Source: a virus | Length of the DNA: 36,304 nucleotides | IMG/VR virus record: IMGVR_UViG_3300043313_000942 | Location: 1-36,304 of that record | Direction: 5' to 3' (one strand) | Part shown: positions 1 to 36,304 of the stretch, piece after piece | How the letters are laid out: each line of letters starts with the position of its first letter | How positions within the stretch are numbered: position 1 is the first letter of the stretch | The notes under the pieces: generated by a model | What the model saw: the letters and a program-made list of their open reading frames with translations, nothing else | What the model was told of the DNA's origin: nothing | Database searches by the model: none | Translations under genes and position numbers: made by a program

Positions 1-69
1 GATGCTGTGGGGAGGCCTTTTTAATATTCTCGGTGGGCGGTAATGGCGTTCCGTCAACCATGGGACGTC
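1..69. repeat. Left copy of the 69-bp terminal direct repeat (circular-assembly overlap or terminal redundancy)
   Basis: Exact identity to 36236-36304, read directly. The repeat runs through the coding sequence of two genes. Confidence 0.95.
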
Positions 70-231
70 GCGTGCCCTCGCTGCAAAGCGAAGAAGGGTA
101 ACGTGTGCCGCACGCCGTATTCGTGCAACTCGCTTGAAGGCAGGGCGCACAGCGACCGCTGGAGCCGCTCGCTGGGACTACGCAACCCCATCGCCCCGGG
201 CCACCCCTCTACTACGGGGAGGCGACCGTGA
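43..231 (+). CDS. Small Cys/His zinc-finger-like protein (62 aa), function unknown
   Basis: ATG at 43 overlaps the TAA of the preceding gene (TAATG). Motif ACPRCKAKKGNVC...C...AHSDRW. The stop overlaps the next start (GTGA). Confidence 0.6.
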   Translation: MAFRQPWDVACPRCKAKKGNVCRTPYSCNSLEGRAHSDRWSRSLGLRNPIAPGHPSTTGRRP

Positions 232-467
232 GCGCGCGCATGAAACCACGGTACGAGCCGAAGACGCTGGAGCAGAAGCTCGGCTACCTCGTCGAGGAAT
301 GCGGCGAAGTGCTGGCGGCGGTCGGCAAGACGCAGCGATGGGGCTTGCAGTCGGTCAACCCCGAACTGCCGCCCGAGGAGCAGGAGACGAATCAGGAGTG
401 GCTGCTGCGCGAACTGACCGACCTGACGCGAGCCGTTCGCATGATCCGAAAGGCGCTTACCCCATGA
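228..467 (+). CDS. MazG-like all-alpha nucleotide pyrophosphohydrolase (79 aa, short)
   Basis: LGYLVEECGEVLAAVGK resembles the EExxE metal-binding helix of the MazG/dimeric dUTPase superfamily. GTG start overlaps the upstream stop; ATGA overlap with the next gene. Confidence 0.5.
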   Translation: MSARMKPRYEPKTLEQKLGYLVEECGEVLAAVGKTQRWGLQSVNPELPPEEQETNQEWLLRELTDLTRAVRMIRKALTP

Positions 468-1132
468 GCCGCTCCCCTGCGCTGGACCCGGCGGCGCGAT
501 ACCGAGAGGCGCTTGAGGCCATTGCCGCCGGCTGCTCCGGCGTTCGTCGCTGTCACGCCGGCCTGCACGACATCGCTCGCCGCGCCCTTACTGGGACACC
601 GACACCCGCGGCACTCTGCCTGGAATTGTTAAACGCGGGGCGTTGCTGCAACCTGGAGTGCCACCATGACGGGGAGTGCGATTTCACCGCAGCCACCCCC
701 GAGCCTACTCCCATGGCGGTACCGCTAAGGCCAGCACGGGAGGTGGCGCACGAAGCCGCGAGTCGCTTCTGTGCGCTCGATTCCGGCCGTCACACGAACA
801 CATGCAACATCGCCAGTGCCGCCATCGAACGCGACCGTGCTAGCCGTCCACCTGGGGCCCCAGCCCTACGTAGACGCATGCCGCGCAAACATGGCTCGCA
901 GTTGGTCGATGAGGAGAACTGGAACAACGAGGAGATGATGGAGTCGGCGCGCGCGGCAATGGACACGCCGCTTGTGCGCGGCTGCTACAAAGCGCTCGAG
1001 GTCGTAGCCGAGAAGCACGGACTCGTCGCATGCGACCCGGATGGCGGGGAGTGCCAGTTCCCCAGATGTCTCGTGGCCGGCTGCGAGGCTGAGCCCGGCG
1101 GCACTCCCACCCCGCCTGGAGGGGCGAAGTGA
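464..1132 (+). CDS. Cysteine-rich hypothetical protein (222 aa, 14 Cys)
   Basis: In-frame ATG at 464 (ATGA overlap) within ORF 134..1132. The upstream 110 codons overlap two better genes and look like wrong-frame sequence. Motifs HHDGECDF and DPDGGECQFPRC. Confidence 0.65.
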   Translation: MSRSPALDPAARYREALEAIAAGCSGVRRCHAGLHDIARRALTGTPTPAALCLELLNAGRCCNLECHHDGECDFTAATPEPTPMAVPLRPAREVAHEAASRFCALDSGRHTNTCNIASAAIERDRASRPPGAPALRRRMPRKHGSQLVDEENWNNEEMMESARAAMDTPLVRGCYKALEVVAEKHGLVACDPDGGECQFPRCLVAGCEAEPGGTPTPPGGAK

Positions 1133-1359
1133 GCTACGACGGCAGAATACCGGCCCCGGTGCTTGCGGCGTGGGCGCGAACGTGTCGCGACGGCTGCGGC
1201 GTCAACTGCGGCAATCGTCCGTGCGACGCCTGCTGCGCGGGCGGAATCTGCGACGCCTCGCCCTGCATCTGCGACAACGAGGTGGAGGACTATTACGACG
1301 ATGACGACGACGCCACCCCGCCTGGAGGTGGCCGGGCTACAAAGGACGGTGCCCCGTGA
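1129..1359 (+). CDS. Cysteine-knot-like miniprotein with a poly-Asp tail (76 aa, 9 Cys in 32 residues)
   Basis: GTG start 6 nt after GGAGG. CRDGCGVNCGNRPCDACCAGGICDASPCIC followed by EVEDYYDDDDD. 4-nt overlaps on both sides. Confidence 0.6.
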   Translation: MSYDGRIPAPVLAAWARTCRDGCGVNCGNRPCDACCAGGICDASPCICDNEVEDYYDDDDDATPPGGGRATKDGAP

Positions 1360-1646
1360 CGGCTAGGGATGCGCTGAGGGCTGCGGCACGGGAAATCGAC
1401 TGTCCTGTCAGTGACCTGTGTACAGCCGAGGACAATTGCACCCGCAGACCGCTAGCCGCAGCCCTCAGAGCGCTGGCTGCCAGGCTGGATGCTGAGGTGG
1501 AACTGACCCTGTCGCTTGACGACCTCGGCTGCTGCGACGAAGCCGACAAGGAAGGGCGGCAGATGTTACTCGCCCGTCTCGACGCAGACCTTCCGGTGAA
1601 GCCCGACCCCCAACAGAAGGACCACCAAGGAGGGATGAGCAAATGA
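1356..1646 (+). CDS. Hypothetical protein (96 aa, 5 Cys)
   Basis: GTGA and ATGA overlaps with neighbours; plausible amino-acid composition. Confidence 0.6.
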   Translation: MTARDALRAAAREIDCPVSDLCTAEDNCTRRPLAAALRALAARLDAEVELTLSLDDLGCCDEADKEGRQMLLARLDADLPVKPDPQQKDHQGGMSK

Positions 1647-1867
1647 GCACCCGGCGATTCAGCGGTCCCAGGCTCAAGGAAGCGCGCATTCAGCGAGGTC
1701 TGAACCAGCGAACCCTTGGCAAGCTGGCCGGCGTGTCATGTCCGTTCATCTCGCAGCTCGAAACCGGCCGAAGCACTCCGACGCTCGACCGCGCGTTCCG
1801 TCTTGCCGACGCGCTGAACGTTTCCATCTACGCCCTAACGACCGTTCGCGGAGGGAGCCGCCCATGA
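1643..1867 (+). CDS. XRE/Cro-CI family helix-turn-helix transcriptional regulator (74 aa)
   Basis: LKEARIQRGLNQRTLGKLAGVSCPFISQLETGRSTPTLDRAFRLADALNV is a textbook HTH_XRE pattern. Confidence 0.9.
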   Translation: MSTRRFSGPRLKEARIQRGLNQRTLGKLAGVSCPFISQLETGRSTPTLDRAFRLADALNVSIYALTTVRGGSRP

Positions 1868-2343
1868 CCACCGATCCAAGCCACCCCACAGGAGAGAGGG
1901 CGCTACTGGAAGCGCTGGAGCGAATCATCACGTCGGCGTTTCATCAAACCGGAGACGACACGTTAAAGCGATGTCTCTGGTGTTGGCTGCTGGCGTCGGT
2001 CGAAAAACTGCGACCACAGGGCCCGCACTACGACGGATGTCCCGTTGGCATTGCCGGCGCTGCCATCGAGGCCCACCGGAGCCGTCCTACAGCGGATGAC
2101 GCGAGGGCCGTTGCGCACGCCGCCTGCCCGACGTGCCCGGTAACAGACCGCAACGAGCAGGACATACCGCACTCGCCGCATTGCGACGACGTCGCCGACG
2201 CCATCCTCAGCGACCGAGCATCCCGGGAGGCTAAGGCGAGGGAGCTGCTCGAATGGTGGATTGACCACGCGCGGGACGCGTTCCCGCTCAAGGCCAAGGA
2301 GACCCGCGCCTTTCTCGGCCGCTCCCGAAAGGAACGAACATGA
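1864..2343 (+). CDS. Hypothetical Cys-containing protein (159 aa)
   Basis: ATG at 1864 (ATGA overlap with the XRE gene) inside ORF 1738..2343. Motifs CLWCW, YDGCPVG, CPTCP. Confidence 0.65.
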   Translation: MTTDPSHPTGERALLEALERIITSAFHQTGDDTLKRCLWCWLLASVEKLRPQGPHYDGCPVGIAGAAIEAHRSRPTADDARAVAHAACPTCPVTDRNEQDIPHSPHCDDVADAILSDRASREAKARELLEWWIDHARDAFPLKAKETRAFLGRSRKERT

Positions 2344-3512
2344 CCGACGATGACGCGAACGAAGTGCTACCAGGCTACGCCGAGATGACCGCCCTCCGCG
2401 CCAAGCTCGCGGCGACCGAGCAGGAGCTTGGCTGGTACCAACGGGCCGGTCACAAGGCAGCCGCCGACCTGGACGAAGCCAGGCGGCGGCTCGCAGCGAC
2501 CGAGGCGAAGCTGGCTGACATACAGGAACGGCTAGACTGCGACCAGGCGATCCTAAAAGGGCGAACCGAGAAAATGAACAAGGCGCACGCGCAGCTCGCA
2601 GCGACCGAGCGGGCGCTAGAAAATGAGCGCGGCTGGACAAGGGCCTTCAAAGAGGACGCGGCTAAGGAAATCGCCAAGGCTGATGCCCTTCGCTCGCAGC
2701 TCGCAGCGACCGAGGAGCAACTACGACGGGCTAGGGAGGCGGCCGAGGCAGCACTCGCGGGCGGCCCATGTGACTGCTACGAATGCCGTGATACGGTGCG
2801 CAAGGTCATCGCCGCCCTCGCCGCTCCCGCTACACCCGCCCCTGCTGGGATGCATGCATTTGGCAGTTGCGTCGAGGACTTCGGCGACAGGCCGTGTCGT
2901 GACTGCGCGGAGTATGCGCTTGAGGCCGTTGGCGCCCCGGCGGTAACCACTGCTGCGCGGCAGCGGATAGTCGGCTCCCGGCCGGCCGACGGACTGCGAC
3001 ACGACATGGCCTGCCCAGCGTACGATGGCGGCATTTGCGACTGTCGCCCTCCAGTCCCCGGGACACCGCCCGACGAGCGGTGTTCAACTTGCGGGCATCC
3101 GCAGTGTACGTTTGGGTCGGCCGGCCACCCGCCTGGGTTCGACGAAGCGATTCGGGCGGGCGAGCGCGAACTTGCCGAGCAGTTAAAAGGCCCAGCCGTC
3201 GCAGCCCAGAGGACGGAGCCCGCCCCGCCGCCCACGTGCGCTGCCGAGTGCGGGAACACCATCGACAGGTGGACGACGATGGCCGATGGATTCGCGACGT
3301 ACGGGGGCGGGGCCGTTCTTCGCGTCTACTGCACCCCCGCCTGCCGTGACGCCGGCAAGCCCCTCCACCCAGCGAAGCCGCCGCCGCCCGAGGCTGAGCC
3401 GTTTCCAGACTGCCGAACGTGCGGGGGCACGGAACGCTACTACGGCGCCGACAATGAACTCGTTGGCCCATGTCCCGACTGCCGCCCTACTCCTGGTGCG
3501 CCGAAGCCGTGA
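2340..3512 (+). CDS. Coiled-coil (LAATE repeats) plus Cys-rich C-terminal domain protein (390 aa, 20 Cys)
   Basis: ATGA overlap with the upstream gene. The N-terminal half is heptad-like with four LAATE motifs. The C-terminal half carries CxC/CxxC pairs. Confidence 0.75.
   Translation: MTDDDANEVLPGYAEMTALRAKLAATEQELGWYQRAGHKAAADLDEARRRLAATEAKLADIQERLDCDQAILKGRTEKMNKAHAQLAATERALENERGWTRAFKEDAAKEIAKADALRSQLAATEEQLRRAREAAEAALAGGPCDCYECRDTVRKVIAALAAPATPAPAGMHAFGSCVEDFGDRPCRDCAEYALEAVGAPAVTTAARQRIVGSRPADGLRHDMACPAYDGGICDCRPPVPGTPPDERCSTCGHPQCTFGSAGHPPGFDEAIRAGERELAEQLKGPAVAAQRTEPAPPPTCAAECGNTIDRWTTMADGFATYGGGAVLRVYCTPACRDAGKPLHPAKPPPPEAEPFPDCRTCGGTERYYGADNELVGPCPDCRPTPGAPKP
2405..2714 (+). repeat. 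Four copies of a 16-nt core GCTCGC(A/G)GCGACCGAG at 2405, 2489, 2594 and 2699 (spacing 84/105/105)
   Basis: Read directly; encodes (K/R/Q)LAATE at 28/35/35-residue intervals. Confidence 0.85.
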
Positions 3513-3514
3513 GT

Positions 3515-4444
3515 TTAGGTTGCGCCTGGCTTTCTCGAAACGAGCGGGACGCGGGAGAAATCCAGATAGCCCACCAGGCGCCCCCTGGCGCCGTCCTCCG
3601 GTCTCCAGATGTGTCTCCATACGGCGTCACCATTGCGTGACCCACCACGCGAGGTGTTCCCCTCGACACTCTCCAGCAGCCCGCCGCCGTTGACGCTCTC
3701 CACGATGCCCGTGTGCCCGTGTCCGCCGCCGTGGTCCATGATCACGATCGCACCCTTCGTCGGCTCGGTCGTTCGGGCGTTGTCGGCGGCGAGCTCCCAC
3801 AGGTGCAGGACGCCGCCGGTCTTCGGGCACGGGTTCAGCACGTCAAGGGCGAGGGACGCCTCTTGGAACACCCAGTGGACGAACGCCGCGCACCATGACT
3901 GGCCGGGGTGCAGGCCGACGCTCGCCAGGTAACGGTCAACCTCGGGTCCGGTGTTCGGGCCCGTCTCCCGCACGCCAATCTGCGTGAGGGCGATTGCAAT
4001 CGCCCCCTCCACGAGGTCAGCGGGCACGAAAAGCGGATCAGTCACGACCCGGGGGGTGGGGCCGTCGTCGTACCCGGAGCCTCGTGGAAGAAGGCCGCTG
4101 CGCCTCCGACCGCTGTCGCCACCGCCGCGAACGCCACCGGCAGAATCCCCGCCGTCACCAGCGAAGCCCCCACCATACTCGCTGCCATCAATCCTCTGTA
4201 GAGCCACTTCATGTTCGGTCCTTTCGGTTAGGCCGCCACTGAATCCGACGGCGTCGATGAGTCGCATGGTTCTTCGTGCGAGGCCGCATAGCTGCCGCTC
4301 GACAAGCGTTGCAGCGTCTCGTGAAAGGAGCGGAAATGCGTCGTTAGCCCCGGCGAATGCTCGAGCCAGAGCTTCAGCCGCTCCTTGGCATTCCCTGAAG
4401 AGCTGTCGCCTGACGTCGAGCTCGCTGGGCCTGTCATTTGCCAT
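3515..4444 (-). CDS. Endolysin: C-terminal CHAP/NlpC-P60-type peptidoglycan hydrolase with an unknown N-terminal domain of about 170 aa and a Gly-rich linker
   Basis: GPNTGPEVDRYL...SWCAAFVHWV...HGHTGIVESV...VEGNTS matches the CHAP catalytic Cys/His layout. The ATG at 4444 overlaps the holin-like stop. Longest ORF is 3515..4540. Confidence 0.8.
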   Translation of the reverse strand: MANDRPSELDVRRQLFRECQGAAEALARAFAGANDAFPLLSRDAATLVERQLCGLARRTMRLIDAVGFSGGLTERTEHEVALQRIDGSEYGGGFAGDGGDSAGGVRGGGDSGRRRSGLLPRGSGYDDGPTPRVVTDPLFVPADLVEGAIAIALTQIGVRETGPNTGPEVDRYLASVGLHPGQSWCAAFVHWVFQEASLALDVLNPCPKTGGVLHLWELAADNARTTEPTKGAIVIMDHGGGHGHTGIVESVNGGGLLESVEGNTSRGGSRNGDAVWRHIWRPEDGARGRLVGYLDFSRVPLVSRKPGAT

Positions 4445-4634
4445 CGCTCGCTTCGTGGTGGTCTGGTTTCTTCGTACTCCGCATCTGGGCCCCGGCGTGT
4501 CCGAAGGTCCCGGCGACGATGACGGTCGCAAGCTGGACAACGGCTGGGAATGACACCGCGCAGGTTGTCGACGTACCGCATGCGATGACCATGGCGGTAG
4601 CGATGAGGAGAGCGGCTACGTGGTGCCAGGTCAC
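4434..4634 (-). CDS. Holin-like small membrane protein (66 aa, two hydrophobic helices, charged C-terminus)
   Basis: VAALLIATAMVIACG and VSFPAVVQLATVIVAGTFG, then KKPDHHEASDGK. Sits immediately upstream of the endolysin. GTGA overlap with the lipoprotein gene. Confidence 0.6.
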   Translation of the reverse strand: MTWHHVAALLIATAMVIACGTSTTCAVSFPAVVQLATVIVAGTFGHAGAQMRSTKKPDHHEASDGK

Positions 4635-4834
4635 TTGGTCAGCTTTTGCAGCTTTGGTTGTTCCTTCGGCTCTTCGATCAACACCGGGAATGGCCAGGGA
4701 GGCAGGATCGCAATGAGCGGGGGTAAGTCAGCGGGAGAGCAGCCGTCAATCACCCTTCCCGTGTTGCAGCGGTCGAGGGCGGTTGGATTGCCCGTGGTAG
4801 CGCAGCCGGCGAACAGGAGAGCGAGGTACTTCAT
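4631..4834 (-). CDS. Proline-rich lipoprotein, o-spanin (Rz1)-like (67 aa)
   Basis: Signal peptide plus lipobox MKYLALLFAG|C. The mature 56 aa contain 10 Pro and 2 further Cys. ATGA overlap with the upstream gene; located in the lysis cassette. Confidence 0.6.
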   Translation of the reverse strand: MKYLALLFAGCATTGNPTALDRCNTGRVIDGCSPADLPPLIAILPPWPFPVLIEEPKEQPKLQKLTK

Positions 4835-6759: not shown

Positions 6760-7476
6760 TCAGCCGACGATGTTTTTCGGCACCATCCGAAGCCATGAGC
6801 CGGCGGCGAAAGCCGATGCCTGGTTTCCGAGAATCTGAAAGCTCGTAAGGTTCGTCGTCGTGTCGGTCCAGATGCCCGAAAACACCAGCTCGTTGTTCGT
6901 GGACAGATCGAAAAACCCCGACATCGACAGCATGCGGATGCGGCCCGTGGCGGCCCGTAATGAGCCCGTGATGTAGAGCTTGTCCCCACTGGCGAAGGTC
7001 CACGGGTCGGAGCTGACGCGCCCCAGTATCCAGTCCGTGTGATTGACAGAGCCCTGTAGAAACGACCCCGTTACGGCCAGGAGGTTACTGGCCTGGCTCT
7101 GCGGCTTGAACGACACCGTCGGAGACGCCGAGTTGATCAATAGCTCGGCATCGAATTGGTATTCGCCGTCAACATCGCCATTGAGGCCTGACAGCGTGAT
7201 CGTATCGCTCGCCGATAGCAGCGTCGAGATGTTGATGTCCGGGAGGACGGAGACGACCGGATTGGCCGGGTCGGTCGCATCGACGTTAATATTGCTGCCC
7301 TCGACCACCGATTCGACGGTCCCATCTCCACCGCCGCCGATTGCAGCGGGCGCCGCCCCGTCGATGCTGACCTCCAGGCCAGAGGCGCCGCGGGATAGGC
7401 GAACGGTGCCGACTGGCCCGGTCCTATCGGCCCCGGTGACGAAGTCGATGGTGGTTGCTGTTTGCTGCTTGGACAT
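6760..7476 (-). CDS. Tail fibre/receptor-binding-region structural protein (238 aa), function unassigned
   Basis: Strong Shine-Dalgarno (SD) sequence GAGAGGGA upstream of the ATG at 7476. Ser/Thr/Gly-rich, beta-like composition. Position among fibre genes. Confidence 0.6.
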   Translation of the reverse strand: MSKQQTATTIDFVTGADRTGPVGTVRLSRGASGLEVSIDGAAPAAIGGGGDGTVESVVEGSNINVDATDPANPVVSVLPDINISTLLSASDTITLSGLNGDVDGEYQFDAELLINSASPTVSFKPQSQASNLLAVTGSFLQGSVNHTDWILGRVSSDPWTFASGDKLYITGSLRAATGRIRMLSMSGFFDLSTNNELVFSGIWTDTTTNLTSFQILGNQASAFAAGSWLRMVPKNIVG

Positions 7477-7496
7477 CGTGGTTTCCCTCTCGTCGG

Positions 7497-7525
7497 TGCT
7501 AATTCCCGCCCCTGTCGCCTGTCAA
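7497..7525 (-). promoter_or_regulatory. Candidate late promoter: TTGACA-N12-GGGAATTAGCA (copy A)
   Basis: Minus strand: TTGACA (7525-7520), then TTAGCA (7502-7497) 17 nt later. Same 6+12+11 architecture as 22615-22643. Lies in the 64-bp intergenic gap. Confidence 0.45.
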
Positions 7526-9887: not shown

Positions 9888-10688
9888 TCAGTCGGTTGGT
9901 TCGTTCGCTTCGATCTGCTGGGTCCGCGTCGCGCTCCGTGATGTCCCGCGCTTCCCGGCGACTTCCTTCTCTTGCGGCGTGGGCTGGTTCGTCTGCGTCG
10001 GCCCCGGCGTCTGCAGCAACGCCATAAGCGACGGGTCCACGCCCGGAATCGCCAGCAGTACGGCCAGGCCCCGCTCCCAATCGCACTCCCACTTCGGGTG
10101 CTCGCCCTTCTGGTCTGCGATGCGCAGGACGATTGCCCCTACGATCGCCTTGTAGAGCTCCGGGTAGACGCTCGACAGCGCCGTGGCCTGGGCAACGGTC
10201 AGCCGGCCGATCTGAACCATCCCGAACACCGACAGCGGCTTGTCTATGATTTCCAGCAGGTCCTCGAACAGCCCCAACGCGTAATCGCTAGGCGGCAGGT
10301 TCGTGACGCCCGTGACAGTCTTCTCGACGCTGATGGGGAAGTGAGCCTTCAGGTAGTTCCACGCCCGCGCCAGCGACCCCACGAATATCCCCGCCGAGTC
10401 CAGCAGCGTCGGGGGAAGGGCGTTGATGATGTCGTCCAGGGCCACCGGCGAGCCTGTAGCCGAGAAGGCGTCGAGCATGGCGTCGTACTTCAGGTCCGGG
10501 GAGCTGACGTCCTCGGCCGTCCCGTTCACAAGGTCCCGGGCGCCCTTCTCGACCAGGCGCATGATTCCGTGAATGTCGGCCCACTCGGGGGCCAGGATTC
10601 GTCCCCGCTCCTGCAGGATGACGTTCCGCAGGCCTACGACGGCCAGCATCGCCTCCCCGTGGTCTACGTCGATGGGTAGTTCGTACAT
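9888..10688 (-). CDS. Virion-module hypothetical protein (266 aa)
   Basis: ATG at 10688 (MYELPIDVDH...). The 54 upstream codons of ORF 9888..10850 are Arg/Pro-rich wrong-frame-like sequence and would overlap the divergent lipoprotein gene. Confidence 0.6.
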   Translation of the reverse strand: MYELPIDVDHGEAMLAVVGLRNVILQERGRILAPEWADIHGIMRLVEKGARDLVNGTAEDVSSPDLKYDAMLDAFSATGSPVALDDIINALPPTLLDSAGIFVGSLARAWNYLKAHFPISVEKTVTGVTNLPPSDYALGLFEDLLEIIDKPLSVFGMVQIGRLTVAQATALSSVYPELYKAIVGAIVLRIADQKGEHPKWECDWERGLAVLLAIPGVDPSLMALLQTPGPTQTNQPTPQEKEVAGKRGTSRSATRTQQIEANEPTD

Positions 10689-10753
10689 CAGTGGCCCCTC
10701 TGAACGAACGTTCCGGATGGACGGAAGTGGGGCCGGCGGTACGATCGGCGGCG

Positions 10754-11203
10754 ATGAGATGGCTCGCTGCGATCGTGTTGCTCGCCTCGGTAGGCTGCGG
10801 CGGTAATCCGACACCCGACGACAAGGTCCAGGGAAACTGGATTTTCGCATCGTCCGACGGGCTGACCGGCATCGGCCTGAAGTTCAACGACATCAGCTAC
10901 GACTTGAGCGGCCTCGTGCTCACGTCGTCGAACACCGCGCAGGCCATCGTGGAGAAGGGCAGCTTCTCCATCAACGCGACGACGCTCGTGTTCGCCCCGA
11001 CCGAGTCGACGTGCCCCGGCCCCATCCCCATCTACCAGATGGACTACCGTTTCAGCGGGTCGGTCTTGATGATCACCGCAGGCTCGAATCTGATTGCCTT
11101 CGAACGGAATCCGTACGCCGTCGATTCGAGCTTCGCGCTCACCCTCGGCTGCGACGTATCCGGCTCGTTCGTCCCGAGTCCGATCGCCCCGGTCAGCAAC
11201 TAG
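10754..11203 (+). CDS. Secreted lipoprotein (149 aa) encoded on the opposite strand inside the virion module; candidate moron or superinfection-exclusion factor
   Basis: MRWLAAIVLLASVG|C signal peptide with lipobox-like SVGC. High GC3 in this frame; the antisense ORF is Arg-rich junk. GNW motif and beta-rich mature part. Confidence 0.7.
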   Translation: MRWLAAIVLLASVGCGGNPTPDDKVQGNWIFASSDGLTGIGLKFNDISYDLSGLVLTSSNTAQAIVEKGSFSINATTLVFAPTESTCPGPIPIYQMDYRFSGSVLMITAGSNLIAFERNPYAVDSSFALTLGCDVSGSFVPSPIAPVSN

Positions 11204-27793: not shown

Positions 27794-28045
27794 TCACAGC
27801 CCCTCCAGTTTGCGGCCGTGCCTCCCACCTCGGAGCGCCCACAGAATCGTACTGTGGTCGCGACCCCCAAGCGCCCTCCCGATAGATGGAGCCCGCCGTA
27901 GCTCGGTAGCCAGGATAGCCCTGGCCCTCACCAGCTCACGACTGCGGCACGGGCCCTTTACGGCCTGGGGGCCGAGGCAAAGCTCGTGACACCTCGCGCT
28001 GACGTAGCCGGCGATTGCTTCGTCGGTGATTTGGAGGGGGCTCAT
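27794..28045 (-). CDS. DnaA domain IV-like HTH DNA-binding protein (83 aa)
   Basis: RARAILATELRRAPSIGRALGGRDHSTILWALR mirrors the DnaA C-terminal ...IG..FGGRDHTTV.HA... signature. Confidence 0.65.
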   Translation of the reverse strand: MSPLQITDEAIAGYVSARCHELCLGPQAVKGPCRSRELVRARAILATELRRAPSIGRALGGRDHSTILWALRGGRHGRKLEGL

Positions 28046-28181: not shown

Positions 28182-28628
28182 TCAAAACGGCACTTCGGCA
28201 TCATCTCGTTCTGGCGGCAGCCTTGGATCGGGAGGCGGACTCGCCTCGAGCCGCGCAACCTTGGCTCGTTGTTCATCGAGCGCCCATTGCACGTAGCCGC
28301 GCCAGTGTGTCAGTTCGGACTTGGCCCGCAGGTAGTCGCCCTTGACCGTCTCCATCGCAGCCAGCCAGCGCACGCGCTCTTTCTTCGTCGCTGCCTTGAA
28401 GCCATCGACGTCAAACAGGCCATCGTACTCGGCGGTCTTTAGACGCTCCTGGGTGGAACGCAGGTCGCGCCTGGACTGCTCCACGTTCTCAAGTAGAGCC
28501 GCCGCGGGGTCGCGCTCGTATTCGGCGGCGGCTCGTTTCTGGTCGGCCTTCGTGATCACTCGCTCGACGGGGACGAAGGCGTCGAAGTGGGACTTCGCGT
28601 AGAGGTCAAGCAGGTCCTTTGTGTTCAT
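28182..28628 (-). CDS. Hypothetical protein (148 aa)
   Basis: ATGA overlap with the upstream gene; helical, charged composition. Confidence 0.6.
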   Translation of the reverse strand: MNTKDLLDLYAKSHFDAFVPVERVITKADQKRAAAEYERDPAAALLENVEQSRRDLRSTQERLKTAEYDGLFDVDGFKAATKKERVRWLAAMETVKGDYLRAKSELTHWRGYVQWALDEQRAKVARLEASPPPDPRLPPERDDAEVPF

Positions 28629-29260
28629 GGTCGCCTCCCGAATGCGAGCTCGGCGCGGCGCTCAAGCGCGGCGTCCTCTGCCTCCTCTCGGGCCCGGACG
28701 GCGGGATCAATCCGCTTCCGCTCAGGCTGTCGTTTCGCCGGCCGGTAATCCTGCGTAAAGCCCCACTGGTTGATCCAGGTAACGAGGTGCTGCGGGCTCT
28801 GCCAGCTTTCGAGGCTCGCCTCGTATTCCGCCCACTTTACCCGAACTGTCTCGAGGGCCGGCCGCTCGGCAAGTACCCAACTTTCCTGCGCTTTGAACTT
28901 GTTTCCCCGCTTTCCCGTGGCGTCCCAAATCCGCAGAAATTCAGGCTCGTAACTTGGCGCCTTTCGTGCTTTGCGCGCACGTGCGCGTTTCGGATTACCT
29001 GGAGAGTCCGGATTCACGATCCGGAGGTCCGGAGGAGAACCAGAAGAAGAGATAGGCGCGGGCTCTGTTATAGATGTGGTTACTAATAGCGGTTTGACTG
29101 CTACTAATGGCGCACTAATAGCGATTGTTGCTACCATTGCGCGTTGCTCCGACTTCCACGTTGCCATGCACTTCAAACAGCGGTGACGCCTAATGACAAC
29201 GGCGCCTGGGTAGGTGTTGGTAACCTTCGTTGGTTCATGGTTGCACTGCGGGCAGGTCAC
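28625..29260 (-). CDS. Replication initiator/organizer-like protein with an N-terminal zinc ribbon (211 aa)
   Basis: CPQC...CLKC ribbon. The C-terminus EFLRIWDATGKRGNKFKAQESW...LVTWINQWGF resembles the F..FW..YP.K.gK...W...WL motif of phage/plasmid replication organizers. An iteron cluster sits inside the gene. Confidence 0.45.
   Translation of the reverse strand: MTCPQCNHEPTKVTNTYPGAVVIRRHRCLKCMATWKSEQRAMVATIAISAPLVAVKPLLVTTSITEPAPISSSGSPPDLRIVNPDSPGNPKRARARKARKAPSYEPEFLRIWDATGKRGNKFKAQESWVLAERPALETVRVKWAEYEASLESWQSPQHLVTWINQWGFTQDYRPAKRQPERKRIDPAVRAREEAEDAALERRAELAFGRRP
29080..29142. repeat. Iteron-like cluster ACTAAT(A/G)GCG x3 plus a degenerate fourth copy, in an AT-rich island; putative origin of replication
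   Basis: TTACTAATAGCGG (29080), CTACTAATGGCGC (29101), GCACTAATAGCGA (29112), GCTACCATTGCGC (29130). ACTAAT cores are spaced 21 and 11 bp. Encoded with rare codons (TTA, CTA, GTA, ATA, ATT, AGT). Confidence 0.5.
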
Positions 29261-31080: not shown

Positions 31081-32043
31081 TCAACTAAAGCCACGCTCGC
31101 GCTTGTCTGTCAATGAATCGTTGCTAGTTTCGTAAACTTTTTTCTGCGCGGGCCTTCGCTCCATGGCCGCCGCAATCTCGAGGGCCCGATCTTCCTGCTC
31201 GCGGTGCATGTACCGCTCGGTGGTGCGGCTGTCGGCGTGGCCCAGTTGATCGCGGAGAGCCTTGAGGCCGATGCCGGCTTGGTCGGCGAGGCTCGCGTGC
31301 GTGTGTCTGAGGTCGTGCCAGCGCAGGCGCTTGTCGCCCGGGGCACAGACCACGTCGAGGCCGCACCGCTCCACGACGGCGCGAAACCACAGCTCGATGG
31401 TGGACGGGTGGATCGCCCGCCCGGTCTGCTTGCTCCAGAAGACGAACGGCGAGGTGTAGTGACGGGGAAGCGCGGAAACTTCCTCGGCCGCGCGGGGCGG
31501 GAGGGCAACGATTCGCTTCCGCTTGCTCTTGGTCTGGACGCTGTTGATCGTGACCTGGCCGTTGCCACCGATGCGGTCGTGACGGAGCGTCAGCATCTCC
31601 GACAGGCGGAGGCCCGTCGACACGGCCACAAGCACCGCCGCCCGAAGCATTGGGTTCGGCCTGCTGGCGTTCAACAACACTTCAACTTGATCCCAAGTCA
31701 GCCACGTCTCGCGAGCTGTCCTCGCTCCCGAGCCCTGGGCGGCGAACAGCGTGTTGACCGAGATGATGCCGGCGACCACCGCCCAGGCGTACATCTGCTT
31801 CGCCCTCAACAGCTCCGTGTCCAGCGTGGCGGCTGACACACGTCTCCCCGTGCGCGGGGATGCCTCGTACATCCGGACGGCCCGGAGATCACTCCAGGCG
31901 TCGGGCGTGACTTCGTCAGCGAACCGACTTCCAGCCAGCCTTACGAATGGCTCCAGTCGTACGCGCTCCAGCCTCCACGACCGCGTGAATCGACGCACCT
32001 TTTCCCAGCGCTCGTAAAGAGCGGCCACCGTGATCCGTTCCAC
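31081..32043 (-). CDS. int: Tyrosine recombinase / phage integrase (320 aa)
   Basis: STGLRLSE (Arg I), WHDLRHTHAS (His-x-x-Arg) and LGHADSRTTERYMH (catalytic Tyr) are all present. Confidence 0.92.
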   Translation of the reverse strand: MERITVAALYERWEKVRRFTRSWRLERVRLEPFVRLAGSRFADEVTPDAWSDLRAVRMYEASPRTGRRVSAATLDTELLRAKQMYAWAVVAGIISVNTLFAAQGSGARTARETWLTWDQVEVLLNASRPNPMLRAAVLVAVSTGLRLSEMLTLRHDRIGGNGQVTINSVQTKSKRKRIVALPPRAAEEVSALPRHYTSPFVFWSKQTGRAIHPSTIELWFRAVVERCGLDVVCAPGDKRLRWHDLRHTHASLADQAGIGLKALRDQLGHADSRTTERYMHREQEDRALEIAAAMERRPAQKKVYETSNDSLTDKRERGFS

Positions 32044-32594: not shown

Positions 32595-32851
32595 GGCTCA
32601 CGGTCCACGAAGAGATGGAACACAAGTCCGCCTCGCATCTGCACGGTACCGACGTACTGACCCACGCAATCACAGGGATGGCCAGTGCCGCGCCAGCGAA
32701 AGGTGCGCTTGACGAGGCCGGCATCTGGATCGACGCGCGCCCAGACGAACGGCTCCATTCCCTGGATTTGGACGCACAGGATTTCCGCGCCAGTCGGCAT
32801 GCGGACCTCCTGCATGTCATCGACGGCGATGTGGTATTTGTAAATGCGCAT
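32591..32851 (-). CDS. Conserved small phage protein (86 aa, MRIYKY... family), function unknown
   Basis: ATG at 32851 inside ORF 32591..32983. The pattern MRIYKYHI...MPTGAEILCVQIQG...WARVDP...GTGHP...YVGTV...LVFHLF recurs in prophage small proteins. Confidence 0.6.
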   Translation of the reverse strand: MRIYKYHIAVDDMQEVRMPTGAEILCVQIQGMEPFVWARVDPDAGLVKRTFRWRGTGHPCDCVGQYVGTVQMRGGLVFHLFVDREP

Positions 32852-33861
32852 CACAGCGTCTCGCCCTTGAGAAGCATCTGTAACGCCCGCTCGGCCTGCA
32901 CCTGAGACAGCGACTCCGACGTGGCGACGTTGAAGTTTTTCAGCAGCCATTGGGGGGCGAGGTCTTTGACCTTCTTCCCCCACGCTGCAACTGCGGCCTC
33001 GCGGACGTTCTGCAGCGTGCCGGGGTCGGCGACTTCCCCCGTGTCGTCATCGTCCGAGCCGGGCTCGCGGTCGTTGTCGTTCATTGCCCCCGCGATGGGA
33101 GCCTGGGACTCATTGTTCTTGAGCGTCTCTGCCTGGCGGTCGATCATCCCCTGCATGCGCTTGATGAAGTTGCCTGCCTGTTCGTACGTCAGCATTGTCG
33201 ACGTCGTGCACGGCCTCCCCTGGGAATCCTTGTAGGCGGCGAGCCCTGTCCTGTAGGGGTGGCCGGGGTGCTCGGCCTTCCCTGTCCAGCCTCCGATCTT
33301 CTCTTTCATGATGTGGATTTGCTGGATTTGGGAGGCGTTCGCCATGAGTGCGGTCGGGGTTGCCTTGACCGTGTTCGCCTTCGCGGCGTTACCAGCGACA
33401 GGAGATTTGCCACTGCGACCCTCGGCTCCTTCTCCGTCGTCGTCCTCGGTCGCCACGCCCACGAATGCCTGGAGGGCATAGCGGCGCAGGTAGCTGGTGA
33501 CCGAGCCATACTCTTGTGGCCCCTGCGCTTTCGGGACCACCATCGCCACGCACGCCATCCACTGGCCGCTCGTGTGCCCCATTAGAGTCCGAAGCCCGAC
33601 GGTGTTACCGCGCGTGAATGGCTGCTGGATCACGCACAGTCCGTTCTTGGTCAGTGGCCCGCGGCACGTATCCCAGATGGCGGCGAGCGTGGCGTATGAC
33701 GCCTTCCGGCCATCTTTCGAAAAGAAGGGGTTCACGGCATCGCGGGATGCGGTGGTGATTTCGCCTTGCGCCGCAACCATGGCCTTGAACAGGTCCCCGC
33801 ATTCATTGCTCTGCTCCCACTCGGTCGTAACGGTAGGTTCCATGGTCATCTCCTCACTCAC
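32851..33861 (-). CDS. erf: ERF-family single-strand annealing recombinase (336 aa)
   Basis: NPFFSKDGRKASYATLAAIWDTCRGPLTKNGLCVIQQP...LMGHTSGQW...YGSVTSYLRRYALQAFVGVATEDDD fits the ERF core. Confidence 0.8.
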   Translation of the reverse strand: MSEEMTMEPTVTTEWEQSNECGDLFKAMVAAQGEITTASRDAVNPFFSKDGRKASYATLAAIWDTCRGPLTKNGLCVIQQPFTRGNTVGLRTLMGHTSGQWMACVAMVVPKAQGPQEYGSVTSYLRRYALQAFVGVATEDDDGEGAEGRSGKSPVAGNAAKANTVKATPTALMANASQIQQIHIMKEKIGGWTGKAEHPGHPYRTGLAAYKDSQGRPCTTSTMLTYEQAGNFIKRMQGMIDRQAETLKNNESQAPIAGAMNDNDREPGSDDDDTGEVADPGTLQNVREAAVAAWGKKVKDLAPQWLLKNFNVATSESLSQVQAERALQMLLKGETL

Positions 33862-34132: not shown

Positions 34133-34363
34133 TCACAGCGGCCTCGGCATCGGGTCCGTTGCAGGCTCCCCGGTCAGCACGTCGAGCACGTGCTCGAATG
34201 CCGCCTCCGCCATCAGCTTCTTGAGGTCGGCGAGATGACCCTGCGACGGCTGCTCCAATCCCTTCCTCGTCACCTGGAACCACATCAGCTCGGAGATGAG
34301 GCGGGTGAGGCGGTCGTCGTCAAAGGACTCCAGCAGCGTTGCGGCGTCGGCGCGGGTCAGCAT
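34133..34363 (-). CDS. Hypothetical protein (76 aa)
   Basis: Balanced composition; overlaps the upstream stop. Confidence 0.55.
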   Translation of the reverse strand: MLTRADAATLLESFDDDRLTRLISELMWFQVTRKGLEQPSQGHLADLKKLMAEAAFEHVLDVLTGEPATDPMPRPL

Positions 34364-34542
34364 TTCGTAGCCTCCTCCTCTCGGGCCTCATGCGCGCAGT
34401 CGCGACACAGGACCTTCAGGGCCCGTTCCACGTCCTGTCCCTCGACGAGCGTTTCCCCGCAGTCGGAGCAATACGCCAACTCGGCCCCGCAGATGCAGTG
34501 CTCCGGGAGGCGGTCACAGCAGCTTTCGTAGTAGGTGCTCAT
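34357..34542 (-). CDS. Small zinc-ribbon protein (61 aa, 8 Cys)
   Basis: CC...CIC...CSDC...CRDC. Confidence 0.6.
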   Translation of the reverse strand: MSTYYESCCDRLPEHCICGAELAYCSDCGETLVEGQDVERALKVLCRDCAHEAREEEATKC

Positions 34543-34886: not shown

Positions 34887-35405
34887 CTAGCGGATGCCGT
34901 TCGGCCAGGACGCGTCTACCGGGGGCACTTCCGTGGTCCCCGTCTCGTCGCTCACGAACTCCTTAGCGATGCGCTCCGCCCAGACAAGGGGGATGGGCCT
35001 ACCGCCGCCCGAAGGGGCCTTCAGCCACGATTTGGCGGCCTCTACGGTGATTCCCTTCTGGGAGCGAGCCCACTCGGGCAGGGAGAGGTTGCGCTTGTGT
35101 AGGGCTTGCCGGAACGGCCACGTCGATTTTGTGCGGGCAATCGACACCTTCGCGCCTCGGGATGCAGATTCTGCTTCCATCTTGGGTACACCTAATGTAC
35201 CTTTCTTCTGGATGGAAGACAAGGGCTGCGTACCTGACTCCGCATTGGCCATTCGCCGCCAGTACGCCGCTTGTTCTCGAAGGGACGCAATTTGTGCCTC
35301 GAAGTCCAGGACGAGCTGGCGGGTTTTCGCTAGGAAGCCCTCGACCTCGTCGGCTTCTTCCTCGAAGCGCTTGGCTTTGGCCTCGAACTGTCCGGCTGAT
35401 GACAT
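34887..35405 (-). CDS. Coiled-coil plus C-terminal Cro/YdaS-like HTH DNA-binding protein (172 aa); repressor candidate
   Basis: ATG at 35405 inside ORF 34887..35789. C-terminus NLSLPEWARSQKGITVEAAKSWLKA...RPIPLVWAERIAKEF is HTH-like. Sits next to the switch region, divergent from the plus-strand operon. Confidence 0.55.
   Translation of the reverse strand: MSSAGQFEAKAKRFEEEADEVEGFLAKTRQLVLDFEAQIASLREQAAYWRRMANAESGTQPLSSIQKKGTLGVPKMEAESASRGAKVSIARTKSTWPFRQALHKRNLSLPEWARSQKGITVEAAKSWLKAPSGGGRPIPLVWAERIAKEFVSDETGTTEVPPVDASWPNGIR
35185..35201. promoter_or_regulatory. Perfect 17-bp palindrome GGTACA-cctaa-TGTACC inside the HTH gene (operator candidate)
   Basis: Read directly. Encoded by rare codons (ACA TTA GGT GTA). 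Overlaps a minus-strand TTGTCT-N17-TACATT promoter-like pair located 13 nt before an in-frame ATG (35180). Confidence 0.5.
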
Positions 35406-35435
35406 GCCCACCTGTAACATGAAAGGGAGATTGCG

Positions 35436-36278
35436 ATGAAACCAACGAAGCCCGAACGTGTAGAGGTGGGAAGCCGGTGGCAGTGCGGCGACAGACGAAG
35501 CACCGTCACGCGTCTTGAAGATGCCGCGAGGACACGCAAGGTGTGGCTTCGGTACGATGACACGGAACGCGAGGTCTACTCGCCCGAGGAGCTGTTCGTC
35601 GGCGCCAGCCCTTCCTACGTCTACCTCGGTACTACAGCGGGGATAGGGGTAGCGGCGCCGATGGCCGAGAACAAGGACGGCTATCCCGTCGGGTGCTTGT
35701 CGTGCGGGGCGAAGCTCAGTGAGGAAGAGGCTTACGAATGCGACGCCTGTGACGAGGACGGCTACGGCGCGCGCACAGACGCCTGGCACGCAGGCGCTCG
35801 CGACTTCCCACGTCGGGCACCTAGCGCCGCTACACCGACGCCCGCGCGCGACGAGGGGCGGTCTTGCTCAACCTGCCACGGCGTCCACGGCGAGCCCCCG
35901 TGTCCTCCCGGATGGCCGAAAGCCTCTGCCCCGAAGCTTCGGGAGGTGTCCACGAACGGAAAGCCCGGCTCGTGGGTCCCCTACTCCAGCAACTCGGGGT
36001 ACCCCTTCGATACATACCGGCACCGTCGGGAGAACGGGGTTGTTGTAATGGCAGGGCCACCCCGCGGCTACAACGGGAAGACCTGGGAACAGCACGTCGT
36101 CGGCGATCAAAACATGCGCGTCGGGATGAGGCAGCGCGACCACGAGAACCCGTCGGCCGGTCGGCGACTGACGGCCATGATGGCACCCCCCCCCCGGCAG
36201 CCCTCGAAGCCTCTCCCCGTTCCCTCAGCTCACTCGATGCTGTGGGGAGGCCTTTTTAATATTCTCGGTGGGCGGTAA
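35436..36278 (+). CDS. First gene of the plus-strand operon: Cys-containing hypothetical protein (280 aa)
   Basis: SD AGGGAGA 7 nt upstream of the ATG. CLSC...CDAC and CSTC...C motifs. The 3' end lies in the terminal repeat and its TAA overlaps the ATG of the 43..231 gene. Confidence 0.7.
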   Translation: MKPTKPERVEVGSRWQCGDRRSTVTRLEDAARTRKVWLRYDDTEREVYSPEELFVGASPSYVYLGTTAGIGVAAPMAENKDGYPVGCLSCGAKLSEEEAYECDACDEDGYGARTDAWHAGARDFPRRAPSAATPTPARDEGRSCSTCHGVHGEPPCPPGWPKASAPKLREVSTNGKPGSWVPYSSNSGYPFDTYRHRRENGVVVMAGPPRGYNGKTWEQHVVGDQNMRVGMRQRDHENPSAGRRLTAMMAPPPRQPSKPLPVPSAHSMLWGGLFNILGGR

Positions 36279-36304
36279 TGGCGTTCCGTCAACCATGGGA
36301 CGTC
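36236..36304. repeat. Right copy of the 69-bp terminal direct repeat
   Basis: Exact identity to 1-69. Confidence 0.95.

Follow-up and report, generated by a model that had tools for sequence, protein, structure and literature searches.

A nine-gene block of cysteine-rich proteins in an uncultivated temperate tailed phage: a probable hypervariable accessory cassette slot

The DNA analyzed here (the window, 36,304 nucleotides) represents the circular genome of a temperate phage of 36,235 bp, as judged from a 69-bp exact terminal direct repeat, with position 1 being equivalent to position 36236. The 69-bp junction is read straight through in L016 and L017, which are independent assemblies of this phage (99.97–100% identical). 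Across this contig end runs a gap-free block of nine plus-strand genes (35436–36278, then 43–3512), designated g1 to g9. The preliminary description counted ten genes, but its own list (seven unknowns plus one MazG-like and one XRE gene) also sums to nine. The block and the features around it are as follows.

32851..33861, minus strand: ERF-family single-strand annealing protein (Pfam ERF, E 2.7e-18; phrog_2324, E 3e-35)
34887..35420, minus strand: divergent conserved early gene, 172–177 aa, thirteen homologues
35436..36278, plus strand: g1, 280 aa, 8 Cys; ORF with a Shine-Dalgarno (SD) motif (GGGAG), first gene of the block
36236..36304, no strand: 69-bp copy of positions 1–69; exact terminal direct repeat, assembly overlap of the circular contig
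43..231, plus strand: g2, 62 aa, 4 Cys (CxxC-x8-C-x5-C), basic; TAATG overlap with g1
228..467, plus strand: g3, 79 aa; MazG-like all-alpha NTP pyrophosphohydrolase (phrog_4856)
464..1132, plus strand: g4, 222 aa, 14 Cys; fusion of two modules
1129..1359, plus strand: g5, 76 aa, 9 Cys in 31 residues, then an acidic tail; ORF with SD
1356..1646, plus strand: g6, 96 aa, 5 Cys, acidic, helical; ORF with SD
1643..1867, plus strand: g7, 74 aa; XRE/Cro-C1-type HTH protein
1864..2343, plus strand: g8, 159 aa, 6 Cys (two CxxC)
2340..3512, plus strand: g9, 390 aa, 21 Cys
3515..4540, minus strand: CHAP-domain endolysin (Pfam CHAP, E 2.7e-11), convergent on g9

All eight junctions within the block are start/stop overlaps of 1 nt (TAATG) or 4 nt (ATGA/GTGA), and each start is preceded by an SD-like motif, so that the coupled string reported previously is borne out. 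It is likewise correct that the block is the sole multi-gene plus-strand unit, lying on the strand opposite to all other genes and converging on the lysis gene. However, the same overlap pattern occurs at up to 20 of the 36 minus-strand stop codons, and the block therefore represents the tight end of what is normal in this genome rather than an exception. The nine called frames beat all alternatives in frame statistics, the AT skew changes sign exactly over the block, and protein-level homologues or family matches were found for g1, g3, the C-terminal module of g4, g7, the N-terminus of g8, and g9; together these data indicate that the block genes are real. Neither a sigma-70-like promoter nor an intrinsic terminator was detected in or around the block, with the reservation that the sigma-70 consensus may not be that of the host. 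We have assumed that the block is a single transcription unit, and its timing is likewise an assumption.

Family matches were obtained for three block genes, g3, g7 and, just below threshold, g2, while g1, g4, g5, g6 and g8 had no match in Pfam, PHROGs, NCBIfam, PADLOC or PDB. The presence of MazG-like and XRE genes in the string, noticed earlier, was thereby confirmed. The g3 protein matches PHROG 4856 (nucleoside triphosphate pyrophosphohydrolase, E 3e-11) and, over 28 residues only, Pfam MazG (18.0 bits, under the cut-off of 22). It possesses the metal-binding motifs EExxE ... ExxD (EECGE at residues 23–27 and ELTD at 62–65, read from the translation), contains the only DNA match to isolated phages, and is predicted to be a nucleotide pyrophosphohydrolase. 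The g7 protein matches Pfam HTH_3 (E 8e-15, 55.1 bits versus a cut-off of 23, profile positions 1–53 of 55), with sub-threshold matches to antitoxin and RstR-type models, and is predicted to be a local transcriptional regulator of the block. With E 6.4e-5 and 23.0 bits against Pfam Phage_zn_bind_8 (PF24623), g2 falls short of the gathering cut-off of 24; this near miss suggests a small zinc-finger-type protein, zinc-finger-like yet not filed as a member of that family.

g1 (five homologues) has an N-terminal domain rich in beta structure and an insert of the form CxxC-x12-CxxC, together with a CxxCH-x7-C motif and, at the C-terminus, the conserved motif PLPVPSAHSMLWGG; its AF2 model was unusable (pLDDT 46.9). 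The C-terminal module of g4 (about residues 138–215, nt 875–1108) belongs to a family of stand-alone proteins of 75–119 aa with four invariant cysteines, and an exhaustive HMMER search with g4 gave 10 hits, all but one restricted to residues 130–219; its AF2 model (pLDDT 65.7) had no Foldseek match. The N-terminal part of g9 is a coiled coil in which QLAATE occurs four times (2391–2722, spaced by 84, 105 and 105 nt); about six Cys clusters follow. Its C-terminal part contains two sub-modules, one reading PTC..CG...YCTxxCxDAGKPLHPA, the other a zinc ribbon, CxTCGG...PCPDCRPTPG; in the family libraries only coiled-coil-type matches were found. The 3' end of g5 is made of two successive junction remnants, with a 16-nt perfect repeat, CCACCCCGCCTGGAGG, at 1107 and 1313. 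No homologue of g5 was found in the family libraries or the relatives, and its gene call rests on frame statistics only. Any of g2 (with its sub-threshold match), g5 and g6 could be mis-called.

The cysteine-rich character of the block, claimed in the preliminary description, was upheld, and so were the individual cysteine counts except that of the 390-aa protein, which has 21 instead of 20. Cysteine accounts for 69 of 1438 residues (4.8%) in the block versus 109 of 9954 (1.1%) in the ORFs of the minus strand (p = 1.6e-23, binomial test), and CxxC occurs 12 times where 3.6 are expected, a number reached in 0 of 2000 shuffles. Clustered CxxC-type cysteines are present in six of the seven proteins of unknown function, zinc-ribbon-like CxxC-x12-15-CxxC pairs occur in block proteins other than g2, and several products are acidic. 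Since CxxC is enriched and none of the nine soluble block proteins has a membrane segment (maximum KD19 = 1.18), zinc-type metal sites are the likely reading, and the clusters are likely to be cytoplasmic zinc-ribbon or knuckle modules, a prediction from the protein sequences.

The same slot was compared in about five related loci (L014, L001, L015, L018 and L020), several of them short. All five keep the conserved early gene on one side and a block on the opposite strand, with the CHAP lysin at the far side wherever the contig reaches that far; the endolysin DNA is 77–85% identical in L001, L013 and L014. The content of the slot is different: 15 genes in L014, at least 6 in L001, three unrelated genes in L018, and a different first gene in L020, whereas g1 also opens the block in L014 and L015. 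A tblastn search of all nine block proteins against the relatives showed that these have g1, a part of g4 and parts of g9 in common with the block, but of g8 only 28 residues and otherwise only short junction patches, including one of 14 residues in g6; g2, g3 (MazG), g5 and g7 (XRE) had no counterpart in any relative. Between the two junctions that enclose g3, L014 carries an unrelated gene of the same length, 79 aa. The patch at the C-terminus of g6 is common to L014 (the 14 residues) and L001, and a 127-aa L001 protein shares with g8 the N-terminal 21–28 residues and the C-terminal ...KERT.

Fusion and fission are also evident: g4 and g9 each combine modules that elsewhere are encoded by separate genes. 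The N-terminal part of g4 (residues 1–132) is patchily related to L014 4808–5149, where a stop codon follows ...RASRPPGGES; g4 continues through the same point. The two C-terminal sub-modules of g9 assort independently. The P0002/L001 protein is 82% identical to g9 over 82 aa, and L014 7510–8052 and a 382-aa protein of L024 have sub-modules in common with g9. The two g9-like parts are encoded separately in L014, where an HNH-AP2 gene overlaps the end of the first. In L024, a distant relative (TerL 42% identical), g9-like and g4C-like genes lie on the main strand, upstream of the terminase, which indicates that the modules move. These two genes lie near each other in both the window and L024, which could reflect a functional link and not just a shared gene pool.

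Since related phages fill the slot with different genes, we regard the block as an ordinary reshuffled accessory region and not a new multi-protein system; the region is probably a hypervariable accessory cassette slot of an uncultivated temperate tailed phage.

The block and L014 share 15 exact matches of 18–36 nt, of which 11 reach 24 nt or more; they are collinear apart from repeat copies and cover 8.8% of the block, whereas the flanking backbone is 85–94% identical. These anchors, mostly 24–36 nt across the relatives, fall at gene junctions, those of g5 and g6 being conserved in the relatives, and at Pro/Thr-linker codons. The minimal efficient pairing segment of Rad52-like recombinases is reported to be 23–27 bp, and short, diverged sequences have been shown to recombine through Erf (PMC3945230); such recombinases have been implicated in mosaic phage gene exchange (PMC3945230, PMC2327257). 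The anchor length matches this value and fits the mechanism, and the phage encodes an ERF protein. The ERF protein is a candidate enzyme for exchange at short anchors: cassettes would be swapped by homologous recombination at SD-plus-start/stop junctions and Pro/Thr-rich linker codons, probably catalyzed by the phage's own annealing protein. Junction anchors could also persist in part through selection on the SD/start context rather than through recombination.

Several known systems resemble the block. Lambdoid phages have mosaic modules, sharply bounded at gene junctions, in the nin region and in further small-gene clusters, which contain densely packed, start/stop-overlapping and largely dispensable small genes. 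The block is similarly packed, varies in content and has exchange points at gene boundaries; unlike nin, which lies between replication and late-control genes, it occupies the opposite strand and is bordered by the lysin and the early control region; some of its anchors are intragenic, at Pro/Thr-linker codons, so that fusion and fission occur at the level of domains; and its proteins are unusually Cys-rich, none matching a nin family. Small phage zinc-finger proteins include the Ogr/Delta and Com types; g2 is like Phage_zn_bind_8 proteins in being short and basic with four cysteines in CxxC...C...C spacing, but only g2 nears a family threshold and nothing ties the block proteins to late-gene activation. 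Integron cassette arrays resemble the block by analogy only, being collinear, with short conserved sequences flanking interchangeable coding cassettes; the block has neither an integron integrase nor attC-like structured sites, its anchors vary in sequence and consist of coding or SD stretches, and its exchange would be homologous instead of site-specific. Like morons and lysogenic-conversion modules, the block consists of non-core extra genes, variable in position beside the lysis module and differing between close relatives. However, a moron is by definition transcribed independently, from its own promoter to its own terminator (PMC3594210), whereas neither element was detected here and the block is a coupled string of nine genes instead of one inserted gene. 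Finally, the block resembles anti-CRISPR (Acr) and other anti-defence operons with an HTH "Aca" autoregulator in its fast-turnover small ORFan genes, embedded short HTH gene and several acidic products. An Acr-Aca-type operon was rejected, as it needs an HTH regulator kept beside the variable genes, and no XRE/HTH gene is present in the slots of L001, L014 and L018.

The block could alternatively be a lysogeny operon, the plus strand being the prophage unit, g7 the maintenance repressor and the other genes conversion or exclusion genes. No other unit runs against the lytic-direction genes, and the block diverges from the first early gene, whose start codon is only 15–30 nt from that of g1 and which has a terminator-like hairpin at its stop (34889–34875). 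In addition, g7 resembles small repressors of the RstR/DicA type, and the stop codons of g9 and the endolysin are 2 nt apart with no terminator between them; read-through would then give antisense RNA against the lysin. The divergent gene was described earlier as repressor-like. The divergence from a conserved early gene is confirmed, but the label is not: this gene has a coiled-coil N-terminus and a C-terminal domain swapped between relatives, its Cro/C1 HTH matches are weak, sub-threshold and confined to the L014 and L015 copies, and the window's own copy has no family match. A lysogeny operon is unlikely, since no promoter was detected, the integrase gene belongs to the early genes of the other strand, and the lack of an XRE gene in the slots of L001, L014 and L018 indicates that g7 is not the core repressor of the lineage.

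It is quite improbable that some of the short frames g2, g5 and g6 are chance ORFs in DNA of 65% G+C. All three have weak coding scores (-0.13 to +0.09), no protein homologues turned up for g5 or g6, and a calculation from base composition gives about 3% Cys even for random frames of such G+C content. On the other hand, every alternative frame scores lower, each of the three has an SD and an overlapping start in a gap-free string, g2 almost reaches its Pfam cut-off, the CxxC spacing is non-random, and the g5 and g6 junctions recur in the relatives.

That the Cys-rich products form, or act in sequence within, one new machine, such as a metal-cluster complex or a defence/anti-defence system, would be consistent with eight coupled junctions favouring stoichiometric co-expression, with the Cys-rich character shared by seven proteins, and with the close g9-like and g4C-like genes of L024. 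The preliminary description saw the block as its best candidate for an undescribed system, and took shared motifs as a hint of paralogy among its members. However, the gene set is kept in no relative, an outcome which that description had itself named as contrary to its reading, L014 having fragments only and the L018 slot three unrelated genes, and tight coupling is common across this genome. Paralogy was not supported either: the motif strings are present (HHDGECDF, DPDGGECQFPRC and others), but the best composition-corrected E in pairwise BLASTP of the 36 pairs within the block was 0.004–0.02, and a profile of the g4 C-terminal family matched no other block protein. A search of PADLOC-DB revealed no defence-system component, only a generic HTH (g7) and coiled-coil noise (g9, E > 0.007). 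One common machine is thus very unlikely. Least credible of all is a toxin-antitoxin or abortive-infection pair of HTH antitoxin g7 and 159-aa toxin g8, suggested by their 4-nt ATGA overlap, PADLOC HTH matches and the best NCBIfam match of g7 (Y4mF/HipB-type antitoxin HTH, 50.5 bits), since this score is under the cut-off of 71.65, g8 matches neither a toxin family nor any other, and the L001 relative of g8 follows a 58-aa zinc-ribbon gene with no HTH partner; a type II pair was rejected, as the two families are not both recognisable in a conserved pair.

With the slot read as an accessory cassette region, one part of the earlier proposal of an early host-takeover, anti-defence or conversion module stands, namely that accessory, mostly unassignable Cys-rich proteins are encoded on the opposite strand, while the reading as one system does not. 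An early, anti-defence or conversion role is possible, the roles of the proteins being predicted from their sequences. Each product would act by itself rather than as part of one machine, binding or inhibiting its target as a small metal-stabilised protein; the targets may be host or phage proteins and nucleic acids, in host takeover, anti-defence or exclusion.

The first 69 bases of the window are identical to its last 69, and the phage was assembled independently twice more (L016, ENA; L017, Logan; 99.97–100% identical), both assemblies being continuous across the window ends; the genome is therefore circular, with a length of 36,235 bp (position 1 being position 36236). Once the ends are closed, the plus strand has a gap-free series of nine genes (g1 to g9, the block).

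Genes of the plus-strand block
35436–36278, plus strand: g1, 280 aa, 8 Cys
43–231, plus strand: g2, 62 aa, 4 Cys
228–467, plus strand: g3, 79 aa, 1 Cys
464–1132, plus strand: g4, 222 aa, 14 Cys
1129–1359, plus strand: g5, 76 aa, 9 Cys
1356–1646, plus strand: g6, 96 aa, 5 Cys
1643–1867, plus strand: g7, 74 aa, 1 Cys
1864–2343, plus strand: g8, 159 aa, 6 Cys
2340–3512, plus strand: g9, 390 aa, 21 Cys

TAATG, ATGA or GTGA overlaps occur at all 8 junctions, and a GGAGG- or AAGG-like motif is present upstream of every start codon. The coupled string across the ends is thus as given in the preliminary description, but that description counted ten genes where its own list sums to nine. It was right that the block is the sole multi-gene plus-strand unit, all other genes of the window being on the minus strand. 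These encode, in order, a conserved early protein of 172–177 aa, small proteins, an ERF recombinase, an HNH protein, a tyrosine integrase, a DNA methylase, a replication initiator, the terminase, structural proteins, a holin-like protein, a lipoprotein and the CHAP lysin. From this gene content, the phage is temperate. No tRNAs or Rfam families were found in the window. Near the replication-initiator-like gene with an NrdR-type zinc ribbon (28625–29260), an 83-aa protein (27794–28045, minus strand) matches the DnaA C-terminal HTH domain (E 4.5e-8).

The block occupies a slot between the divergent early gene (34887–35420, minus strand) and the lysin gene (3515–4540, minus strand). The start codons of g1 and the early gene are only 15–30 nt apart (35405–35436), so that their promoters, if located there, must fall inside neighbouring coding sequence; in more distant relatives (L018) a 277-nt intergenic region is present. 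At the other end, the convergent stop codons of g9 and the lysin gene are 2 nt apart (3510–3517) with no terminator-like structure between them, and transcripts from either side would therefore enter the opposite gene antisense. Promoter and terminator scans and the fold of the convergent junction were uninformative, and the operator-like repeats sought around the divergent starts were unconvincing. The early protein keeps its coiled-coil N-terminus among relatives (2193–2678 in L014, 1477–1977 in L015 and 393–899 in L020) while its C-terminal domain is swapped, being a weak Cro/C1 HTH in L014 and L015 and a domain without family assignment in the window; two ORFs take the place of the single gene in L020 and L021. 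These swaps could mark different immunity specificities. Two small proteins are encoded upstream of the lysin gene. One, of 67 aa (4631–4834, minus strand), begins with a lipobox-like sequence (MKYLALLFAGC) and ends in a Pro-rich tail; the other, of 66 aa (4434–4634, minus strand), has two hydrophobic stretches. No family match was found for either, and from their sequences they look like an o-spanin and a holin, a resemblance which would imply a diderm host.

Scored for codon usage with the long structural genes of the window as training set, the nine block frames reached modest values, yet above those of every competing frame, and plus-strand AT skew is positive over the block only, which fits a switch of coding strand there. 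Protein-level relatives or family matches were obtained for g1, g3, g4 (C-terminal part), g7, g8 (N-terminus) and g9; protein-level support for g2 is a sub-threshold Pfam match, and the calls of g5 and g6 are based on frame statistics and conserved junctions. The cysteine richness noted previously was borne out: Cys makes up 69 of 1438 residues (4.8%) in the block, compared with 109 of 9954 (1.1%) in the minus-strand ORF set (binomial p = 1.6e-23). C-x2-C was observed 12 times against 3.6 expected (none of 2000 shuffles reached 12), with C-x0-C and C-x1-C at expectation. No hydrophobic segment was detected in any of the nine products. In soluble proteins of the cytoplasm, CxxC pairs that occur in clusters usually point to zinc ribbons or knuckles, and we infer that the Cys-rich products carry putative structures of this kind. 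On the main strand, a 61-aa early protein (34357–34542, minus strand) has 9 Cys (14.8%) and a weak match to the DksA/TraR C4 zinc finger (E 0.009), and a gene in a similar position in L018 (6724–6924) specifies a 66-aa protein containing 8 Cys; Cys-rich small proteins are therefore a trait of the lineage, wider than the plus-strand block.

The embedding of a MazG-like protein and an XRE regulator in the string was confirmed: g3 matches phrog_4856 (E 3e-11; Pfam score under the cut-off) and has the EExxE and ExxD motifs, and g7 is a clear XRE HTH protein (HTH_3, 55 bits). Searches of Pfam, PHROGs, NCBIfam and PADLOC with all nine proteins returned, besides g2, g3 and g7, only coiled-coil noise at the N-terminus of g9, where four QLAATE repeats are spaced 28–35 residues apart (residues 17–133). 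PDB sequence and profile searches with g1, g4, g8, g9 and the alignments A2 and A4 (the latter of the g4C family, g4C being the C-terminal module of g4, approximately residues 138–215) gave no match. Six of the seven proteins earlier described as unassignable (g1, g4, g5, g6, g8 and g9) thus remain matchless in the family libraries and PDB, but the seventh, g2, falls narrowly under the Pfam cut-off for Phage_zn_bind_8. The AF2 model of g1, from 6 sequences, was unusable (pLDDT 46.9); that of g4C was moderate (pLDDT 65.7), and Foldseek found no neighbour for it in PDB or BFVD. The suggested paralogy among block proteins found no support in all-against-all BLASTP or with the A4 profile. A 1402-aa metagenomic protein (P0015) is matched by g4 in 17 separate stretches, the best-scoring one aligning to g4 residues 25–53, and may be a repeat protein built of a short unit related to g4.

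Five related loci with the slot were compared with the window.

Slot content in relatives
L014 (JGI): backbone 85–94% identical; same layout, 15 plus-strand genes, 2.7% Cys
L001 (ENA): slot with at least 6 genes (3.8% Cys); 77% identity in the lysin
L015 (JGI): g1 homologue and early gene, on a short contig
L018 (Logan): slot with three unrelated genes, among them one for a SLOG/YAcAr-domain protein; 44% identity in the early gene
L020 (ENA): first gene differs

In tblastn searches with the nine proteins, the relatives gave matches only to g1, to the N-terminal part of g4 (in patches), to 28 g8 residues, to parts of g9 and to one patch of 14 residues in g6; the MazG-like, XRE, g2 and g5 genes had no counterpart in these loci, and no HTH gene was found in the other slots. 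A RusA-like assignment of the 147-aa slot gene product of L018 was dropped, as Pfam gave no match. The string had been put forward as one undescribed multi-gene system. Since the slots of the relatives lack the gene set, an outcome that the proposal itself had named as counting against it, this reading fails.

What the loci share instead is a set of short exact matches (anchors). Between the window and L014 blocks there are 15, which are 18–36 nt long and in 11 cases no shorter than 24 nt. Repeat copies aside, they are collinear; together they account for only 8.8% of the block, and the DNA that separates them cannot be aligned and differs in length. L001 has the same pattern plus one 195-nt patch. 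The anchors are of two classes: 1) gene junctions, with the SD and overlapping start/stop (...TPTPPGG(stop)/M, ...HQGGMSK(stop)/M and ...STTGRRP(stop)/MSAR), and 2) Pro/Thr-rich linker codons inside g1, g4 and g9, encoding APSAATPTPA, ALTGTPTPA, PEPTPMAVP, LAAPATPAPAG and CRPTPG. In place of g3, L014 has an unrelated 79-aa gene with the same flanking junctions; it has a stop codon at the point where g4 reads on, and g4C, with four invariant Cys, stands alone as a protein of 75–119 aa in ten relatives from metagenomes and on three IMG/VR contigs. L014 encodes the two g9-like parts separately, and the two C-terminal sub-modules of g9 occur independently of each other in L001 and in the distant relative L024 (TerL 42% identical). 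Remnants of two junctions follow one another at the 3' end of g5, and one of them repeats 16 nt of the g4/g5 junction perfectly. In L024, the main strand carries g9-like and g4C-like genes upstream of the terminase, in the company of other small, coupled genes for Cys-rich proteins, suggesting that the modules come from a shared mobile pool and are not tied to this slot. These alignments show a slot that is kept and a content that is not, with modules apparently exchanged, fused and split at short anchors. The two g9-like genes of L014 are separated by an HNH-AP2 gene of the homing-endonuclease type (6954–7517), which overlaps the first of them at its end; the window lacks a gene of this type.

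The exchange would have proceeded by homologous recombination at the anchors, whose length (mostly 24–36 nt, exact) sits at the minimal pairing length of Rad52-like phage recombinases, 23–27 bp as compared with 31–34 bp for RecA (PMC3945230). The window phage encodes an ERF protein, and in experiments an Erf protein efficiently recombined sequences that were short and diverged (PMC3945230). As to function, we propose, with low confidence, that the products each act on their own, as small binders of host or phage targets that are stabilised by zinc, with g3 hydrolysing a nucleotide pool or signal and g7 regulating the unit. It is improbable, in our estimation, that the collinear anchors and Cys-rich modules form a combinatorial scaffold of cassettes dedicated to diversifying host-targeting binders. 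In such a scaffold, dual-use sequences (Pro/Thr-linker codons also holding the SD and start of the next gene) would allow zinc-binding modules to be swapped between phages through ERF-mediated exchange and to change from a "separate gene" to a "fused domain" state or back, a function like that of integrons but achieved through homologous anchors.

By sequence comparison, the phage lineage is new and distant from all isolates: the TerL of the nearest isolated phage shares only about 25% identity, no match was found for the major capsid protein, and blastn against isolated phages matched only 133 nt, within g3. No related prophage was found in 185,579 reference genomes (two contig scans, lysin and g1), no close relatives emerged when IMG/VR was scanned with g9 and lysin, and a metagenome scan returned one contig, by lysin only. 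Samples containing the lineage are JGI 3300045042, ENA ERZ27257267, ERZ27267979 and ERZ27258587, SRR8552918 and SRR29078252. A 53.7-kb viral contig, L026 (IMGVR_UViG_3300049448_000145), matched the window only through g4C and an integrase (10035–10985) 79% identical to that of the window (31081–32043), which suggests a shared integration site or host.

When compared with defence systems, Acr-Aca operons and toxin-antitoxin pairs, the block was found to belong to none of the three. Its closest known parallels are the mosaic small-gene clusters of lambdoid phages (e.g. the nin region) and moron or conversion regions, from which it differs in its own strand and position, the anchors inside genes and the Cys richness. 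The block is thus a known type of region in a new phage lineage and not a new system; it opens no long-standing question and gives no sign of a new kind of system. The locus is a clean natural case of mosaic exchange at anchors of about 24–36 nt, in which genes are fused or split at linker codons, and the block is useful as a source of ORFan, putatively zinc-type proteins. Since the slot holds at least seven protein families without known function, it is a reasonable place to seek new small inhibitors of host or defence proteins.
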